NCBI GenBank assembly: GCA_963666975.2
Contig: CAXVYR010000004.1
Span: 1,696,001-1,760,000 of the forward strand
Source: Terriglobia bacterium
GTDB lineage: Bacteria; Acidobacteriota; Terriglobia; 2-12-FULL-54-10
DNA: 64,000 nt
Reading direction: 5' to 3'
Of this stretch, positions 1-7,392 are shown in pieces. A program made the translations under genes and the position numbers. The notes under the pieces are model-generated. The model had not been told where the DNA came from. It saw only the letters and a list, made by a program, of their open reading frames with translations, and did not search any database. Every line of letters starts with the position of its first letter. Position 1 is the first letter of the stretch.

Positions 1-1818
1 GTCATTATCATCCTGGTCTTCTTGCCGCTATTTTTCCTCTCCGGAGTGGAGGGGCGGATGTTTGCCCCGCTGGGGGTGGCCTTCATCGTCTGTCTGCTGG
101 CCTCGCTGCTGGTGGCGCTGACGCTGACTCCCGTGTTGTGCTCCTATTTGCTGCCAAAGGCCCGTTTCATGGAGCGCGAAGAAGACGCCTTTTTGGTGCG
201 CTGGCTCAAAAAACAGCAGACGCGCTTGCTGCGCGTCACGCTGCCTCACGCCTGGGAAGTCCTGATTGCCGCTGTTTTCCTGGTCTTGCTCTCGATCGCT
301 TTTATCCCGCTCATGGGGCGCGAGTTTCTGCCGGACTTCAACGAAGGCACCCTGACGGTCAACGTCTTGTCGGAGCCGGGAATCAGCCTGGCGGAATCCG
401 ACGAAATGGGAAGACTGGCGGAGAGGCTGATGGGATCCGTGCCCGAGGTCATCTCCACCGGCCGCCGCACCGGGCGGGCCGAGCTCGACGAGCACGCCGA
501 GGGGGTGCACTCCACGGAAATCGAGGTGGACCTGCGCCGCTCGGGCCGCAGCAAGGAAGAGATCCTCGCCGATATTCGCAACCGGCTCTCGATTCTGCCG
601 GGAGCGGCCATCAACATTGGCCAGCCGATCTCCCACCGCCTGGACCACATGCAGAGCGGCGTGCGCGCCCAGATCGCCGTGAAAGTGTTCGGTCCCGACC
701 TGCCGCTGCTGCGGGAAAAAGCCGGCGAGATCGAATCCGTAATGAAGACGGTCCCGGGCATGGTGGACGTCTTGGTGGAAAAGCAATCCCTGGTCCCCGA
801 ATTGTTGCTGGAGGTGGACCGGCAGCGCGCCGCACAGTACGGCCTGCAAGTGGCCGAGGTCAACTCGGTGCTGGAGCTCGCCTTGCAAGGGCGCGTAGTC
901 TCACAGGTTCTCGAAGAGCAGAGGACCTTCGACGTGGTGGTGCGGCTCGATGAGCCCTACCGCAACGACATGCAATCCATTGGGAACATCCTGATCGATA
1001 CTCCCGTCGGCGGGAAGGTCCTGATTCGGGACGTCGCCGACATTTCCCTGAGCAGCGGCCCCAACCAAGTCTGGCGCGAGAATGCGCAGCGACGGATCGC
1101 CGTGCAGGCGAATCTGGCCGGACGCGATCTGCAAGGGGCGGTGACCGAATTGTCCGAGCGGGTGGAGCAGCAGGTGGAATTGCCTCCCGGCTTCTTTGTC
1201 GTCTACGGAGGACAGTTTGAGTTTCAACGCAACGCAACCCGGTTGATTTTGGTGTTATCCGTCTTTGCTGTCCTGGCCATTTTTGTGCTGCTTTATGGAC
1301 ACTTCCGGTTTGCGCGGGTGGCCTTGCTGGTCATGTCCAACCTGCCCCTTGCCCTGGTGGGAGGGGTGATCGTCATCTTCCTCACCGGAGGGGTGCTTTC
1401 GGTGGCTTCCATGATCGGCTTTATCACCGTGATGGGCATTGCCGCCCGCAACAGCATCATGATGATCTCCCATTACATCCACCTGGTCCGCTACGAGGGA
1501 GAGCAGTTTGATGAGAAGATGATCATCCGCGGCACGCTGGAACGGCTGCGCCCCGTTTTGATGACCGCGCTCACCTCCATCCTGGGGTTGCTGCCTCTGG
1601 TATTGGCGGCGGGAGAGGCTGGGAAGGAGCTTTTGCAACCGATCGCCATGGTTGTGACCGGCGGGTTGATTAGTTCCACTTTCCTCGACCGCGTGGTGAC
1701 TCCGGCCCTGTTTCACAAGTTTGGCCGGCCGGTCTGCGAGTACTATTTGAACTCCAAGGAACATGGCGGGGAGTTCCTGGCAGGACAATCCACTCCAACG
1801 CTGAGCCAAAGTTCTTAG
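1..1818 (+). CDS. CusA/CzcA family heavy-metal efflux RND permease (5' part outside window)
   Basis: RND motifs GREFLPDFNEG, SMIGFITVMGIAARNSIMMI and ERLRPVLMTA; reading frame open from the window start. Confidence 0.92.
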   Translation, partial: VIIILVFLPLFFLSGVEGRMFAPLGVAFIVCLLASLLVALTLTPVLCSYLLPKARFMEREEDAFLVRWLKKQQTRLLRVTLPHAWEVLIAAVFLVLLSIAFIPLMGREFLPDFNEGTLTVNVLSEPGISLAESDEMGRLAERLMGSVPEVISTGRRTGRAELDEHAEGVHSTEIEVDLRRSGRSKEEILADIRNRLSILPGAAINIGQPISHRLDHMQSGVRAQIAVKVFGPDLPLLREKAGEIESVMKTVPGMVDVLVEKQSLVPELLLEVDRQRAAQYGLQVAEVNSVLELALQGRVVSQVLEEQRTFDVVVRLDEPYRNDMQSIGNILIDTPVGGKVLIRDVADISLSSGPNQVWRENAQRRIAVQANLAGRDLQGAVTELSERVEQQVELPPGFFVVYGGQFEFQRNATRLILVLSVFAVLAIFVLLYGHFRFARVALLVMSNLPLALVGGVIVIFLTGGVLSVASMIGFITVMGIAARNSIMMISHYIHLVRYEGEQFDEKMIIRGTLERLRPVLMTALTSILGLLPLVLAAGEAGKELLQPIAMVVTGGLISSTFLDRVVTPALFHKFGRPVCEYYLNSKEHGGEFLAGQSTPTLSQSS

Positions 1819-2475: not shown

Positions 2476-2598
2476 GTTTCTTTCGCCTTTGGATGGTATC
2501 GACTGGAACCTATATTGTAAAGGACCCGCCCCGTCCGGTCAACTCTGGAGGTTCTAGGAGCCGTGTCCTAGTTGTGTGTTGCTCTGCTGGTGGGAGTT

Positions 2599-2991
2599 CT
2601 ACTGGATGCTCAGCGGTATTACGATAGTGCTGATTCTCGGAAGTAAAACCCTCACTTCAGTGAGTTGTTCACCTTTTTGCGGAAGACCAAAAACATAAGA
2701 ATGGGCCCTGTTTGTCGGTTCCGGCGTGTGTTCAACTCTTAAATCGTCGATCTTCCGAATCTCAACAACAGGCATGCTTATGACCGCATTATGATCCGGG
2801 TTTTTTCTAGCCTGTTGTTTGGTCTCTTCTGCGGAGGCATACCTGTCCCAGTTGACCGACATCCCCTTACCATGGGGCTTAAATACTCCAGGCTGGAGTT
2901 CTCCGTCCCGAAAATAATCCTGATGTGCACGCATGAAGACCGAATCAGCATCGGGTATTTCCTCGATCGGCCACCCTAGTTCATCAGCCAC
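2599..2991 (-). CDS. hypothetical protein, possible ADP-ribosyltransferase-like fold (R-S-H pattern)
   Basis: VFMRAH / GMSVNW / NRAHSYV spacing resembles ART-fold toxins; overlaps the upstream gene by 16 nt. Confidence 0.6.
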   Translation of the reverse strand: MADELGWPIEEIPDADSVFMRAHQDYFRDGELQPGVFKPHGKGMSVNWDRYASAEETKQQARKNPDHNAVISMPVVEIRKIDDLRVEHTPEPTNRAHSYVFGLPQKGEQLTEVRVLLPRISTIVIPLSIQ

Positions 2992-3494
2992 GTTGCGATT
3001 CCCAAATTGAAGTTTTTTGGGTCCAGGCTACCCCTAAACTTTTGGGCCGCGTAATTATCTCCGTAGAACGTCGCCATTTCATTGGCATCTGCCGGTATAT
3101 TCACCAGCAACTCCCAAGACGGCTGTTTCCAGTGAAGGTCAATGCTTCCGTCAGGTCCAGGGCCAATCCTTGGGATAGGCAAAGGAATACTGTATGTATC
3201 CCAAAGCCGCTCTACATGTGTGGTCAGGAACGTGATAGCACGGTTAAACGTGTCCTCTGAATAGCCCAAGCTACCCTCGCCGTCCCAATCATCTTCTAAT
3301 TCAAGAATCCGCTTTGCCTGCTCAATTTCCGCTTTCAACCCTTTATAGATATCTAATCCTCCAACAATGCGGAAATTGCTGGGACCTTCGGTGCGATGCT
3401 CTCTCCAACTGGCAGGTCGGTTTTTCGTCTCAGGCCATGCTTTTAATTCGACAGGCTCTATTTCCCATTTGTGAGCCGTCTGTGCTGGTGGCAT
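2976..3494 (-). CDS. conserved hypothetical protein (WDGEG...PxIGPGPDGSIDLHW type)
   Basis: 172-aa ORF in the middle of a tightly packed three-gene operon. Confidence 0.65.
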   Translation of the reverse strand: MPPAQTAHKWEIEPVELKAWPETKNRPASWREHRTEGPSNFRIVGGLDIYKGLKAEIEQAKRILELEDDWDGEGSLGYSEDTFNRAITFLTTHVERLWDTYSIPLPIPRIGPGPDGSIDLHWKQPSWELLVNIPADANEMATFYGDNYAAQKFRGSLDPKNFNLGIATWLMN

Positions 3495-3508
3495 AATTCT
3501 CTTTGCTC

Positions 3509-4216
3509 CTAAAAGATTTCCCTGGGAGGCAAGACGCTAACGCCGGGAGGCAAGACGGTAACGCCTGAATCCTTCATGAGGCCCTTCAACGTCTCTTCTT
3601 TCTTCAATGCGCGATCAACGAGTGCCTTCATGGACCTAATATCATTGCTATCGAGCGCAAAATATTGATCTGCTTGATTCCCGAAGTGGTCGCGCTGAGT
3701 TATTCGCAACATATGAATAATCACTGCTGAATCGGGTTTCTCGGAAACATTCAGATGAAAAATCGGACGAACATCAGTCAAGATTCGTGCGCCGACAAAA
3801 ACTCGCTCATGCTGCGTCATAACGTAGCCAGCCTTAGCAGCCGTCCCGACTGTACTCTCAAGCGACAAAGCAGCTATGAGGAACTTCCGGAGTTTTGCCC
3901 ATTGAGCATCGCCTTCCTTTTCCGAAAAGGCCTCCGCTTTTTTCAGCGCGACAGAGACTTCCTGGTCCACGAATTTTTCTATCGGAGTGCTTTGCGCGTC
4001 CCTTGTGAGATAAAGACTGGCCAATACCAGAACGATCCCCTCAGTTAGATCATTTGGTAGTCCCAGGCGATCTGATACTTCTTCAGAAAGGTCAAAGAAG
4101 TTGAACTGCGGCCCAGCTTTCGCAAGGGCGTCAAGGAATCCGTCAATCTTATCCTCTGGCAGTTCCAGGAACTTCTTGATGTGGTCAATCTGCTTCTCTG
4201 GAACTCTGAGGGCCAT
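3509..4216 (-). CDS. hypothetical protein, helical N-terminus plus COMM-domain-like C-terminus
   Basis: 235 aa; ARILTDVRPIF-x-AVIIHMLRIT-x-QYFALDSNDIRSMKALVDRALKK is a beta-beta-beta-helix pattern like COMM domains (inference). Confidence 0.6.
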   Translation of the reverse strand: MALRVPEKQIDHIKKFLELPEDKIDGFLDALAKAGPQFNFFDLSEEVSDRLGLPNDLTEGIVLVLASLYLTRDAQSTPIEKFVDQEVSVALKKAEAFSEKEGDAQWAKLRKFLIAALSLESTVGTAAKAGYVMTQHERVFVGARILTDVRPIFHLNVSEKPDSAVIIHMLRITQRDHFGNQADQYFALDSNDIRSMKALVDRALKKEETLKGLMKDSGVTVLPPGVSVLPPREIF

Positions 4217-4254
4217 TACAAGACAATCCTAGCGGCTAGGCGGACATTGCGAAA

Positions 4255-5073
4255 TTAACGAGCCGTTTCCGGTTCAATTCTGAGAGTGGACAGTTTGTCC
4301 TCTGCCAGGCGGGCTTCGGGAGTATTGGGAAACCGCTGGAGCAGGCTGCTCAATTCCCGTGCGCCCTGCGTGCGGAGATTCAGGTTAATCAGCGCGTACC
4401 CTTTTTTGAGTTGAGCGGCAGCCGATTTGTTGCCGTTGGGATACTGCTCAATGGCTTTGTCGTATTCCTGAATGGCTTTCTCGAATTGCCCCTGTTGATA
4501 GTAAATGTCCCCAGCGTAGAACTGGGAGTTCGAGGCCAGAGGCGTGTCGGCATAGTAGCGCAGGTAGTCGGTGAACTCCTGCAGGGCCAGGGGATAATTT
4601 CCGCTGGTGTAGTCGCGCAGCGCGGTGTTGTAGAGCACGTCGGGCGGCGGGGGAGCCGCCTCTCCGGAGCCGAAAAAGATCGTTTGAGACGCTGACTCCA
4701 TCTTGGTGATTTGCTGCGAGACCCGGTCCAGCCGGGCGCGCAGTTCGTCGAGCGAGACCTGGAGTCCCTGCATCTGTCCGGTCAAGTTATCCACCTTCTG
4801 GCCGGTGTTTCCCACCGAGTCCCGCAGGGAGTTCTGCAATTCGTTCAGGCTCGAATCCAACTGGCCCATTTGATCCGACGACTGTTCCACCAGCGTGCGT
4901 ATCACCGCCATTTTTTCATCGAGGTTGCGCTGCATCTCCCGTACCATTCCTTGCAGGAGCGCGACGCTCTGTTGCAGTTGGATCACTTCCTTGTCCACCG
5001 CGAAACCAGGCAGAGCAAATCCGGCTATCCAGAAGGCCAGCAATAAAACACTTCGTTTCATAAAACTTCCCAT
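4255..5073 (-). CDS. cpoB: Tol-Pal system coordinator CpoB/YbgF (coiled coil plus TPR)
   Basis: Signal peptide, coiled coil, TPR repeats (YPNGNKSAAAQLKKG); downstream of pal. Confidence 0.88.
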   Translation of the reverse strand: MGSFMKRSVLLLAFWIAGFALPGFAVDKEVIQLQQSVALLQGMVREMQRNLDEKMAVIRTLVEQSSDQMGQLDSSLNELQNSLRDSVGNTGQKVDNLTGQMQGLQVSLDELRARLDRVSQQITKMESASQTIFFGSGEAAPPPPDVLYNTALRDYTSGNYPLALQEFTDYLRYYADTPLASNSQFYAGDIYYQQGQFEKAIQEYDKAIEQYPNGNKSAAAQLKKGYALINLNLRTQGARELSSLLQRFPNTPEARLAEDKLSTLRIEPETAR

Positions 5074-5246: not shown

Positions 5247-6008
5247 CTAGCGGTCGCAGTTGGTGCACACCAGATGGGCCCGGCGGTTCTGCTGCCAGCA
5301 AGTTTCGTTATGCTCGCTGCAGAAAGGCCGTTCCTTGCCGTAACTGATGCTCGTGATACGGCCTGCTGACACACCCAGTTGCACCAGGAAGTCCCGGGCC
5401 GAATTCGCCCGGCGGTCTCCCAAGCCCAGGTTGTAGGCGACGCTGCCGCGCTCGTCGCAGTGCCCCTCGATACTGAAGGTGACACTGGGGTTGTCGCGGA
5501 AGAAGCGCGCACCCCGGGTGAGAGCCTCCCTGGAGTCGGAACGGATATCCGAATTGTCATAATCGAAATACGCGTCCTGGACCGCCTGGTCGAACTTCTG
5601 CCGCATGCTGATCTCCGGAGGAGGAGGAGGAGGCGGCGGCGGCGGCGGCGGCGGCGCGGTCACCGTGATTCGTGCCGTGCTGCTCGTGCTTCCCCCCGGC
5701 CCTCTGGCCGTAATGGTATAGGTTGTAGAACTGGTTGGCGAAACCGAACGCGAACCGTCCGCTTGCACTTCGCCGATACCAGGCTGCAGGTTGAGTTCCG
5801 TCGTATTTTGGGAACTCCACCGCAAGGTCGCGCTCTCTCCTCGCTCAATACTGCTCGGCTGGACCGTCAAGCTTACCGACGGAGCCGGCGGCGGCGGCGG
5901 CGGGGGCGGCGGTGGGGGTGGTGGCACTTGCCTTCTGCAGGCGCTTGCAAAAATCAGCAGTAGGATTACAAGTCCCAGCCCGAATTTCCGGAATTCCTGC
6001 TTCTTCAT
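5247..6008 (-). CDS. pal: peptidoglycan-associated lipoprotein Pal with polyproline-flanked Ig-like insert
   Basis: Lipobox FASAC; OmpA_C motifs YFDYD, IEGHCDERGS, YNLGLGDRRA, SYGKERP, NRRAH. Confidence 0.92.
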   Translation of the reverse strand: MKKQEFRKFGLGLVILLLIFASACRRQVPPPPPPPPPPPPPAPSVSLTVQPSSIERGESATLRWSSQNTTELNLQPGIGEVQADGSRSVSPTSSTTYTITARGPGGSTSSTARITVTAPPPPPPPPPPPPPEISMRQKFDQAVQDAYFDYDNSDIRSDSREALTRGARFFRDNPSVTFSIEGHCDERGSVAYNLGLGDRRANSARDFLVQLGVSAGRITSISYGKERPFCSEHNETCWQQNRRAHLVCTNCDR

Positions 6009-6054
6009 CTTACCCTCCTTTGTCTCGTGAACTGTCCCGAATCGAGTTGGAAAA

Positions 6055-7392
6055 TTACTTGCTTGACCATACAGGTTCTGTACTCTCACCTTGAAATGTC
6101 AGTTGGCGGTGTTTCGTGCCATCTGCCAGCATGGACCATACCTGTGTGACCCCAGCCCTGTTGGACTGAAAAACAATGTGTCTGTTATCGGGCGACCAAG
6201 TGGGGTGCTCGTTGCGCCGGCTGTTGTGGGTCAGCTGCACCACCTGCCTTGTCGCCACATCCATGAGGTGGATATCGTACTCTCCCCCCCGGTCCCAGGT
6301 AAAGGCCAACAGCCTGCCATTCGGCGACCATGCGGGGTCCAGGGCCTGACTGCCCCCGCTGACAACCTGGGTTACGTTCGCCCCCTCGGAGTCCATTATG
6401 TAGATCTGCGGCTTGCCGCTGCGGTCGGAGACAAACGCAATCTGTGCTGACGTTCTCGGGTTCCAGGCGGGCGAGATATCCACTCCGCGCGCAACCGTCA
6501 GCCTTTTTAATCCCCCTCCCCGGACATCTCCCACGTAAATTTCCGGGTCGCCCGTGAAGGAGGAGGTAAAGGCGAGCTTTGTTCCGTCTGGAGACCAAGT
6601 CGGTGTTGTATTCAAGCCCTGCCGATTAAAGAACGACAGGGGGGCCTTGGTCAACAGGGAGAAAATCATGATATCAGGATTGTTCTTCCCATAGGTCGTA
6701 AAAGCGATCTGATCGCCGTCCAGGGAGATTGCCGGTGTCAGAGACAGCGTGTTCAGATGCGTGACCTGCTTCTGGTTTTTCCCGTCATAGTCCATCATCC
6801 AAATTTCTTTTACGTCGGCGCTGATCCGCCGGACGAAGGCGATCTTGGTTTCGGCGATGCCGGGAATGCCCCCGCCCAGGCGGTAGATGATTTCATTGGC
6901 AAATTTATGCGCCGTTCTCCGGACCGCTTCCCGGGTGGGTTCCTCCGCATACCGTTTTCCCAGCACGACTGGCTGCGCGCCTTCATTCTGGGGGTCCACC
7001 CGCGGGTCCACCAGCCAGCCTTCTATCATCAATCGCTCGCCCAGCCGGTAGGCGTTGCCGAGCACCAGCATGTGGGCGCTTACGGGAGGCCCGCTCCACT
7101 CCTCCAGCTTCACATCTCCCGGACGGGCAGGGACCGAGAGGGGAAAAAAGCTCCGACTAACGAGGTCTAAGATACCTGAATATTCCAGGTCATTCCAGAG
7201 GGTTTCGTCAAAAGTTCGCAGCAGGGCCGCGCTGTCGGCGGCTGCCCGGAAATTGGAGACTGCCAGCCGCGTTCGTTCCACTCCAATTCCGGTTCCGCTC
7301 CGGATGAAGTCTTCCTGAGCGCGCGCCGCGCAGGCTGCCCAAAGGATCAGGGCCGGCAGAAGAACCCGCCAATGGATTTTTCCGGTGGGCAA
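6055..7392 (-). CDS. tolB: Tol-Pal beta-propeller protein TolB
   Basis: TolB_N domain plus PD40 repeats (PTWSPDG, PAWSPNG); operon position. Confidence 0.93.
   Translation of the reverse strand: MPTGKIHWRVLLPALILWAACAARAQEDFIRSGTGIGVERTRLAVSNFRAAADSAALLRTFDETLWNDLEYSGILDLVSRSFFPLSVPARPGDVKLEEWSGPPVSAHMLVLGNAYRLGERLMIEGWLVDPRVDPQNEGAQPVVLGKRYAEEPTREAVRRTAHKFANEIIYRLGGGIPGIAETKIAFVRRISADVKEIWMMDYDGKNQKQVTHLNTLSLTPAISLDGDQIAFTTYGKNNPDIMIFSLLTKAPLSFFNRQGLNTTPTWSPDGTKLAFTSSFTGDPEIYVGDVRGGGLKRLTVARGVDISPAWNPRTSAQIAFVSDRSGKPQIYIMDSEGANVTQVVSGGSQALDPAWSPNGRLLAFTWDRGGEYDIHLMDVATRQVVQLTHNSRRNEHPTWSPDNRHIVFQSNRAGVTQVWSMLADGTKHRQLTFQGESTEPVWSSK

Follow-up and report, generated by a model that had tools for sequence, protein, structure and literature searches.

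In the eukaryotic Commander complex, the COMMD proteins form a ring, to whose helical N-terminal (HN) domains CCDC22 and CCDC93 attach by their N-termini. COMMD-like ring proteins are also present in bacteria and archaea, where their function is called obscure in the main text of Liu et al. (Nat Commun 2026, PMC13392464; PDB 9q6a, 9q6c, and 9q6d), and a follow-up preprint likewise ascribes "unknown functions" to them. The gene context given in that main text is mainly from Myxococcota, with neighbors that resemble parts of a type VI secretion system (T6SS) (PMC13392464). A further candidate system of relevance is PDC-M32 of PADLOC, which in the literature covered is named only among listed PADLOC matches. 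The window analyzed here, a 64,000-nucleotide stretch of contig CAXVYR010000004.1 from a Terriglobia bacterium (assembly GCA_963666975.2, positions 1,696,001 to 1,760,000 of the forward strand), carries a cassette of three open reading frames (ORFs) between cpoB and rpsT, in which ORF1 encodes a COMMD-like protein, ORF2 a protein with a PDC-M32A-related core, and ORF3 a small protein with a predicted ADP-ribosyltransferase (ART) fold. With a probability of roughly 55%, this cassette was acquired horizontally and is a self-contained conflict module of three proteins, namely a ring scaffold, an adaptor, and a swappable effector, and such a module may be toxin–antitoxin-like, with a possible role in abortive infection or anti-phage activity. 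The genes follow one another closely, with a gap of 14 bp between ORF1 and ORF2 (3495–3508) and an overlap of 16 bp between ORF2 and ORF3 (2976–2991), and the position and coupling described in a first-pass annotation made from the sequence alone agree exactly with the ORF list.

The AlphaFold2 model of ORF1, built on a 50-sequence alignment with a mean predicted local distance difference test score (pLDDT) of 86, begins with seven helices, after which come three strands and a long helix. Foldseek matches this model to 9q6a (E 6e-10, TM-score 0.69–0.76), an octameric COMMD-like protein of Flavobacteriaceae (MBK5214510), and to human COMMD chains with E values of 1e-5 to 8e-4. Structural alignment with VIA-align placed 212 residues on the 214-residue chain of 9q6a (Z 13.9) and gave Z scores of 6.5–7.9 for human COMMD chains. 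Each of the two domains also finds its own counterpart in COMMD9, the HN domain (4oe9) on ORF1 residues 1–121 with Z 5.7 and the COMM domain (6bp6) on residues 128–217 with Z 7.1. When the ORF1 family profile was searched against PDB sequences with hmmsearch, 9q6a_A was recovered with E 3.9e-18 over profile positions 1–213 of 228. The COMMD layout that the first-pass annotation had read from motifs is therefore upheld both by the fold and by the profile, and ORF1 is a genuine representative of the COMMD-like proteins of prokaryotes (Liu et al., PMC13392464). Pfam, NCBIfam, and PHROGs contain no curated family that matches ORF1, ORF2, or ORF3. Because of the homology to the solved octamer 9q6a, ORF1 is predicted to assemble into a ring, as an octamer or decamer formed via COMM-domain dimers. 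A 21-bp tandem duplication at the 3′ end of ORF1 adds seven residues to the low-confidence C-terminal tail, and these residues are present in none of the 24 other sequences shown from the ORF1 alignment.

ORF2 is composed of a variable N-terminal region and a conserved core of about 120 residues that contains the motifs DDWDGEGS, GPGPDGSID, LLVNIP, and FYGD. Its sole family match is to positions 263–348 of the 375 positions of PADLOC PDC-M32A (E 8.5e-6), the first 260 positions of which have no counterpart in ORF2. The same match is found in 44 of 46 ORF2 family members, and a Pfam scan of these 46 relatives yielded only scattered single matches with E ≥ 0.017. Atlas places ORF2 in unnamed clusters only, some of which are viral. 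In the otherwise variable N-terminal region, Trp residues occur at exactly positions 10, 20, and 30, and this pattern may represent a short docking motif; W-x-acidic patterns are retained in the same region of ORF2 relatives.

ORF3 was modeled with AlphaFold2 on 43 sequences (pLDDT 91) as a small α/β domain. Its Foldseek matches are weak, KptA chains being the best (E 0.27, probability 0.8–0.87). A wide VIA search of 48,161 chains was performed independently of Foldseek, with fold classes judged from the titles of the 50 best entries, and nearly all of these 50 entries are ART-fold proteins. They are led by KptA 9ld3 (Z 8.8, root-mean-square deviation 3.5, 99 residues, covering chain residues 70–180 only), mouse Tpt1 (7yw2, Z 6.4), AvrPphF (Z 6.0), Tse2 (Z 5.5), and DarT (Z 5.1), and the lower matches include Rhs toxins, diphtheria, pertussis, and cholera-type toxins, PARPs, and RES. 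The ART fold holds for ORF3 at the level of the predicted structure, and the guess of a Tse2-like fold in the first-pass annotation is borne out by this ART-dominated list and by the match to Tse2 itself. Among 17 sequences with 26–78% identity, which come from two phyla and also from two viral contigs, 11 residues are invariant, namely E10, R21, F37, S45, W48, Y51, H88, P90, N94, H97, and R114; the first-pass annotation had pointed to Arg, Ser, and His positions, and Arg21, Ser45, and His97 are among the invariant ones. In the model, R21 is located in strand 1 (E17–23) and S45 in strand 2 (E43–48), and H97 opens strand 5 (E97–101). In R-S-E ARTs, an Arg (or His) of strand 1 and the Ser of an S-T-S motif in strand 2 bind NAD+, and the catalytic Glu of a Q/E-x-E motif is placed at the start of strand 5. 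ORF3 so appears to be an ART scaffold equipped with an Arg-Ser-His set and not a classical R-S-E enzyme. 

The ORF3 family comprises 1360 representative clusters (E ≤ 0.001), most of which are stand-alone proteins of 120–150 aa. Forms of 86–89 aa all begin at the internal Met44; an interpretation of these short forms as toxin decay was dropped, as the Met44 starts are probably choices of the gene caller. In one locus of the second phylum (L062:441-704), the ORF3 homologue opens only at the equivalent of Met44 and its N-terminal part, where the invariant Arg would be, is out of frame, which possibly reflects a disruption or an assembly error. Atlas suggests DUF6098 for ORF3 (score 0.93), as a lead only, and matches of ORF3 to two viral contigs (L053 and L054) are spurious, being short and lying inside larger phage structural genes.

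The three genes travel together. Searches with the ORF1 alignment found 15 loci on genomic contigs, and the order ORF1–ORF2–ORF3 is kept in 13 of them, 12 by tblastn and one (L013) by hidden Markov model, including records of Balneolaceae, Arcicella, and Cytophagales. The two exceptions are a contig that ends inside ORF1 (L007) and a degenerate ORF1 (L011). Further trios are present in the same-genus genome G001, in L056, and in three loci of a second phylum (L062, L063, and L066), and another is carried by a record classed as a provirus by IMG/VR (L047). A pattern scan of viral contigs confirmed no ORF1 relative; L047 nonetheless carries a divergent one. The co-occurrence of the three genes, which the first-pass annotation had put forward as a point to be checked, is accordingly seen well beyond the window, the second phylum included.

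The genes behind the COMMD-like gene are of more than one kind. In the samples of the two phyla, all 10 non-seed ORF1 matches are followed by two small, tightly spaced, co-directional genes. The downstream pair is of the ART type in four of the 10 (L056, L062, L063, and L066). In another four, it consists of a different conserved middle gene and a DUF7689 gene, with two such loci in one phylum (L057 and L058, Pfam E 2e-16 and 2e-32) and two in the other (L064 and L065, 1e-29 and 3e-32). The remaining two (L055 and L059) contain yet another middle gene and a protein of 149–154 aa with a DTG motif; the DTG protein of L055 matches Asp_protease_2 with E 2e-4, below the Pfam cutoff, and that of L059 has no Pfam match. 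The last two genes are read as having been swapped as a pair between lineages behind the COMMD-like gene. The ring protein of known structure, 9q6a, is nearest to the ORF1 proteins of ART-type trios (L013, E 1.4e-27; L063, 4e-14), and its match to the DUF7689-type L065 is weaker (5e-4).

Natural fusions connect the same components. Two independent ORF2–ORF3 fusions, P0319 (304 aa) and P0361 (370 aa), contain an ORF2 part recognized by hhalign with probabilities of 100% and 99.9%, and the earlier idea that ORF2 is an adaptor or immunity protein fits both. In genome G100, a 237-aa protein (L078) joins an HN-like N-terminus (hhalign 91.9%) to a middle domain of the DUF7689 type (BLASTP 7e-24), and the fusion gene is followed by a DUF7689 gene (E 7e-28). 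The ORF2/ORF3-like pair also occurs behind other first genes, namely a TIGR04255-family gene (E 4e-19; L069:486-2251) and, on an 89-kb viral contig, a gene for an unassigned 287-aa protein (L048:3901-5911); the proposal that the latter is itself COMMD-like found no sequence support (hhalign 0.17%). In a separate observation, the 167-aa protein P0208, with five member sequences, joins the first ~33 residues of ORF1 in frame to ORF2 from about residue 41, such that nearly the whole COMMD-like gene is deleted and ORF2 is kept.

The cassette was delimited by comparison with unoccupied sites. CpoB was searched in 31 genomes (the window's genome, G000, and 30 relatives), and the genes downstream were read. 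It is a neighbor of Pal and TolB in 30 of the 31, G000 included. In one genome of the same genus (G002) and in five of the same family (G003, G005, G006, G009, and G010), cpoB is directly followed by rpsT, and the same junction is occupied by the trio in G000 and in G001 of the same genus. BLASTN of the empty site of G002 (L018) against the window showed homology that stops at 2552 and restarts at 4253, from which the bounds of the insert in Table 1 follow, and the insert displaces 88 bp of the ancestral cpoB–rpsT spacer. The GC content of the insert is 0.492, compared with 0.603 and 0.595 for the flanks, and the GC content at third codon positions is 0.49–0.53 for the trio, compared with 0.69–0.73 for CpoB, S20, Pal, and TolB; the unlike composition mentioned in the first-pass annotation is evident in both measures. 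By alignment and composition, the cassette is a true insertion of foreign composition. No integrase or transposase is encoded within it. A sigma-70 scan found no convincing promoter belonging to the trio, and a promoter-like site of rpsT (2514–2542, minus strand, TTGACC-17-TACAAT, 10 of 12 matches) lies outside the insert. In another trio locus, a fragment of a Mutator/IS256-type transposase is located about 430 bp further downstream (L004:7949-8809, Pfam Transposase_mut E 3e-67), which may be a hint at cassette movement.

The flanks of the cassette-free G002 are 91–94% identical to those of G000, whereas those of G001, in which the cassette is present, are 85–86% identical. Between G000 and G001, the cassette shows 82–86% nucleotide identity with a synonymous divergence (dS) of 0.29–0.46, compared with a dS of 0.40–0.50 for the flanks. 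In the simplest history, the cassette was present in the ancestor of the genus and was lost in G002; recombination is also possible, because the empty-site spacers across the family cannot be aligned. 

At a wider scale, sampling of the window's phylum (G000 included) recovered the ORF1 family in 6 of 251 genomes and in 7 of 401; in a second phylum (that of G277; two seeds included), 7 of 351 sampled genomes have it. The trio family is sporadic, occurring in about 2% of sampled genomes across two phyla. All 12 trio neighborhoods examined differ from one another, and the flanks are mostly housekeeping genes, such as those for transketolase, class II aminoacyl-tRNA synthetase, Obg, L21 (rplU), GMP synthase (guaA), RecG, and efflux pumps. 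A single copy of the trio is present in its own genome.

Table 1. Coordinates of the cassette, its genes and domains, and the flanking genes in the window.
Feature	Position	Strand	Basis or detail
Inserted cassette, ~1.7 kb	about 2553–4252		BLASTN of empty site against the window; GC contrast
ORF1, COMMD-like protein, 235 aa, ATG start	3509–4216	minus	
ORF1 HN domain, ~residues 1–137	3806–4216	minus	seven helices, H7–17 to H120–137
ORF1 COMM domain, ~residues 138–215	3572–3805	minus	E142–151, E164–175, E181–188, H190–215
21-bp tandem duplication, ORF1 3′ end	3524–3565	minus	TRF: period 21, 2.0 copies, 95% matches
ORF2, 172 aa, ATG start	2976–3494	minus	
ORF2 variable N-terminal region, residues 1–49	3348–3494	minus	poorly conserved, gap-rich alignment columns
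ORF2 conserved core, residues 50–172, stop included	2976–3347	minus	alignment conservation and PDC-M32A match
ORF3, predicted minimal ART-fold protein, 130 aa, GTG start	2599–2991	minus	
Upstream flank, cpoB/ybgF-like TPR gene, last of the tol-pal cluster	4255–5073	minus	Pfam TPR_16, TPR_6, YfiO
Downstream flank, rpsT (ribosomal protein S20)	2200–2475	minus	Pfam Ribosomal_S20p E 3e-23

Genes for TolB-, Pal-, and CpoB-like proteins precede the cassette on the same strand. The Pal/OmpA-like lipoprotein (5247–6089, minus strand) has runs of 12 and 14 Pro residues on either side of its middle domain, and an ORF that enters at the window start (1–1818, plus strand) resembles, by eye, the C-terminal two thirds of an efflux pump of the resistance-nodulation-division type.

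From a single genome pair, G000 and G001, the ratio of nonsynonymous to synonymous substitution rates (dN/dS) was estimated at 0.44 for ORF1, 0.59 for ORF2, and 0.19 for ORF3, alongside 0.11–0.18 for four flanking genes. All three ORFs are judged to be real genes because of these values and because of their homologous clusters (76, 184, and 263, the 184 belonging to ORF1). To judge from the substitution pattern, all three are functional, with the enzyme-like part tightly constrained and the ring and adaptor parts evolving faster. In a metagenome-assembled genome of Acidobacteriota (L010:4942-9521), the trio is interrupted twice, in ORF1 near residue 143 by an IS3-family element (orfAB, NCBIfam E 1e-47) and in ORF3 near residue 99 by an IS256-family transposase (E 4e-89); the ORF2 between these breaks is intact. 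Metatranscriptome contigs identical to the window cover 2501–2679, 2979–3160, and 3336–3639, parts of all three genes; the last of these (run X15) bridges the ORF1/ORF2 junction, and run X19 covers 3280–3465. These contigs are a weak hint of cassette transcription, with rpsT uncovered and DNA carry-over possible.

A possible mechanism can be proposed for the conflict module. By homology with the solved octamer, ORF1 would form a homo-oligomeric ring with the COMM domains at the center and the HN domains on the outside. ORF2 would act as the adaptor, its variable N-terminal part docking on the HN domains of ORF1 and its conserved C-terminal core holding ORF3. ORF3 would be the effector, a minimal ART-fold enzyme in which Arg-Ser-His replaces the classical Arg-Ser-Glu; NAD+ or a similar compound is its probable substrate, and it could modify nucleic acid or protein or cleave NAD+. 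Upon a trigger, release or activation of ORF3 could then lead to growth arrest. Circumstantial signs of a toxin–antitoxin arrangement may be seen in the 16-bp overlap, in the ORF2–ORF3 fusions, and in L010, where a broken ORF3 accompanies an intact ORF2.

The relationship to PADLOC families gives a further, indirect connection with defense. True PDC-M32 consists of two genes (L067; M32A E 1e-120 and M32B E 1e-43), and the ORF3 homologue of the provirus record L047 matches PDC-M32B with E 1.5e-4. The possibility that PDC-M32A is a fusion of ORF1 and ORF2 was ruled out, its N-terminus scoring 0.25% against the ORF1 profile in hhalign. Two-gene relatives do sit in defense islands: L067 is flanked by a type III methyltransferase and a UvrD-like helicase, L068 adjoins a type III restriction enzyme, and L078:200-3322 has HEC-01A/B-like genes on one side (PADLOC E 5e-26 and 1e-5) and a type II DNA methyltransferase on the other (E 1e-33).

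Several observations weigh against a conflict module. A defense-type Pfam domain was found in none of the 12 full-trio flanks (E ≤ 1e-8; a Pfam scan only, with PADLOC not run on them), and no association of full trios with defense islands was seen. PADLOC gave no match at E ≤ 1 for the window's own ORF1 or ORF3, a PDC-M32B match is found in only one of 17 ORF3-family members, and the hhalign probability between true M32B and the ORF3 profile is only 19%, with the Arg, Ser, and His motifs lining up. The start of strand 5 in ORF3 has no invariant Glu, being occupied by H97 with the invariant N94 before it, and ORF3 has no sequence match to any ART family; because of both, ORF3 may not be an ADP-ribosyltransferase at all. 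The isoelectric points of all three proteins are acidic (5.0–5.6), and there is therefore no charge complementarity of the toxin–antitoxin type. The divergence of the cassette between G000 and G001 resembles that of its flanks, and the cassette has therefore been stably inherited in the genus. Finally, in the main text of Liu et al., AlphaFold is reported to have yielded no complex of COMMD-like proteins with the products of neighboring genes in Myxococcota, Chlamydia, or Haloarcula, which represent other subfamilies (PMC13392464).

This stable inheritance would suit an accessory module without any conflict function, in which ORF3 is a harmless NAD+-dependent enzyme acting on nucleic-acid ends or on RNA 2′-phosphates, in the manner of KptA/Tpt1, with ORF1 and ORF2 as regulatory or substrate-presenting partners. 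Such a module would explain why ORF3 is structurally closest to the NAD+-binding lobe of KptA/Tpt1 and why a weak BFVD match leads to a phage "putative RNA 2′-phosphotransferase", and it would agree with purifying selection on ORF3 as strong as on housekeeping genes and with trios adjoining rpsT, rplU, guaA, an aminoacyl-tRNA synthetase gene, and recG. However, the aligned part of KptA excludes the N-terminal RNA-binding lobe, which ORF3 does not have, and no Pfam model, that of Tpt1 included, matches ORF3. The exchange of the third gene for a DUF7689 or protease-like gene also fits poorly with a single metabolic task, as do the patchy distribution in about 2% of genomes, the composition foreign to the surroundings, the copy in a provirus, and the kinship with PDC-M32, and the accessory module is considered unlikely.

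The structural kinship of ORF3 with Tse2, the C-terminal toxins of Rhs proteins (TreX and TreTu), and Tne2 (Z 4.4–5.5) raises a different possibility, namely that ORF3 is exported as a Tse2-like toxin for competition between bacteria, that ORF2 confers immunity to it, and that ORF1 serves as a chaperone or loading adaptor to a secretion machine whose genes lie elsewhere. COMMD-like genes of Myxococcota lie near genes for VgrG, PAAR, and DUF2169 proteins according to the main text of Liu et al. (PMC13392464), and the tight coupling of ORF2 and ORF3 resembles that of effector–immunity pairs. In contrast, no Pfam family of a secretion system, as judged from family names, was found in the 12 trio flanks (E ≤ 1e-8), ORF3 is a bare 130-aa domain without a delivery domain, and the trio is present once in the genome. 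The only fusions of ORF3 are those to ORF2 (two of 150 representatives listed), and it would be strange for an effector to be fused to the protein that confers immunity to it. A toxin–immunity role is considered decidedly improbable. It is very improbable that ORF3 is a catalytically dead ART-like fold in a structural or regulatory trio whose swapped genes are different cargo or clients of the ring, as might be argued from the His in place of Glu at the R-S-E catalytic position, from the lack of any sequence match of ORF3 to ART families, and from the only putative activity of the DUF7689 and protease-like genes, because the 11 residues invariant in 17 sequences include the polar R21, S45, H88, N94, H97, and R114 on cleft-lining strands, a pattern typical of an active site, and because the dN/dS of ORF3 is 0.19.

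The three-protein conflict module, as the preferred reading, has no described counterpart in the literature covered. In the main text of Liu et al. (PMC13392464), the terms "ADP-ribos", "toxin", "Acidobacter", "defence", "defense", and "operon" have no occurrences, and the readable supplements (accessions and taxon ids) do not contain "Acidobacteri"; two large supplements lay outside this scope and may bear on novelty. With the exception of these two supplements, no link of a COMMD-like protein to an adaptor and a swappable effector was found, nor was anything that joins the COMM domain with anti-phage activity, anything relevant on COMMD with a prokaryotic toxin or immunity, or the term DUF7689. 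The remark of the first-pass annotation that this is not a recognized named system stands for the three-gene combination, which was not found described, and needs correction for the parts, since ORF1 belongs to a published COMMD-like family and PDC-M32 is distantly related to ORF2 and ORF3. What is new, as far as gene content and domain assignments indicate, is that other COMMD-like genes carry different middle and third genes and that fusions link ORF2 with ORF3 and an HN domain with a middle gene.

The trio and its relatives provide the first concrete functional context for bacterial COMMD-like proteins, and the function of these proteins becomes testable at the bench. The crystallized protein is nearest to the ART-type operons, and existing reagents may therefore apply directly. 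In addition, the ORF3 proteins define a large ART-fold family that lacks annotation and carries an unusual Arg-Ser-His set, and this family is linked to PDC-M32. A broader and more speculative extension, for which the case is tentative, is that COMMD-like rings are a common hub of modular three-gene conflict systems, in which the HN domains at the rim would dock interchangeable adaptors, each bringing its own effector, be it an ART-fold enzyme, DUF7689, or an aspartyl-protease-like protein, and that the Commander ring descends from a bacterial immune or toxin scaffold. If this were true, COMMD would join the eukaryotic machines that are rooted in prokaryotic defense.

Among the known systems, the intracellular ART-fold toxins DarTG, ParST, and RES-Xre/MbcTA are, like the putative effector here, encoded beside a proposed or established neutralizing partner, and DarT, RES (Z 3.8), MbcT (Z 3.1), and ParT (Z 2.9) are all among the VIA matches of ORF3. 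Their partners are macrodomain, Xre, or ParS antitoxins without a ring scaffold, and ORF3 has no sequence match to these toxins. Tse2–Tsi2 of the T6SS of Pseudomonas aeruginosa shares the ART-like fold with ORF3 (99 residues aligned) and likewise places a small toxin beside a neutralizing partner, in contrast to the trio, which has three genes and no T6SS context; Tsi2 occludes the active site of Tse2, as stated in a section of a review (PMC6099711). KptA/Tpt1 provides the best structural match to ORF3, restricted to its C-terminal lobe, whereas ORF3 possesses neither the RNA-binding lobe nor sequence similarity and gave no Pfam or NCBIfam match at E ≤ 1 that would place it in this family. With PDC-M32, an uncharacterized computational candidate, the trio shares several features: the ORF2 core is homologous to M32A positions 263–348, the ORF3 family is distantly related to M32B, and overlapping gene pairs are present in both systems. 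PDC-M32 has two genes, with the N-terminal 260 residues of M32A not COMMD-like, and its true copy lies in a restriction-modification island, whereas the trio has three genes and full trios lie outside such islands. Compared with the prokaryotic COMMD-like proteins, the trio differs by its putative adaptor-plus-effector operon, which is absent from the main text of Liu et al. (PMC13392464), and ORF1, encoded in a single copy, shares with them the HN and COMM architecture together with homology in both sequence and structure.

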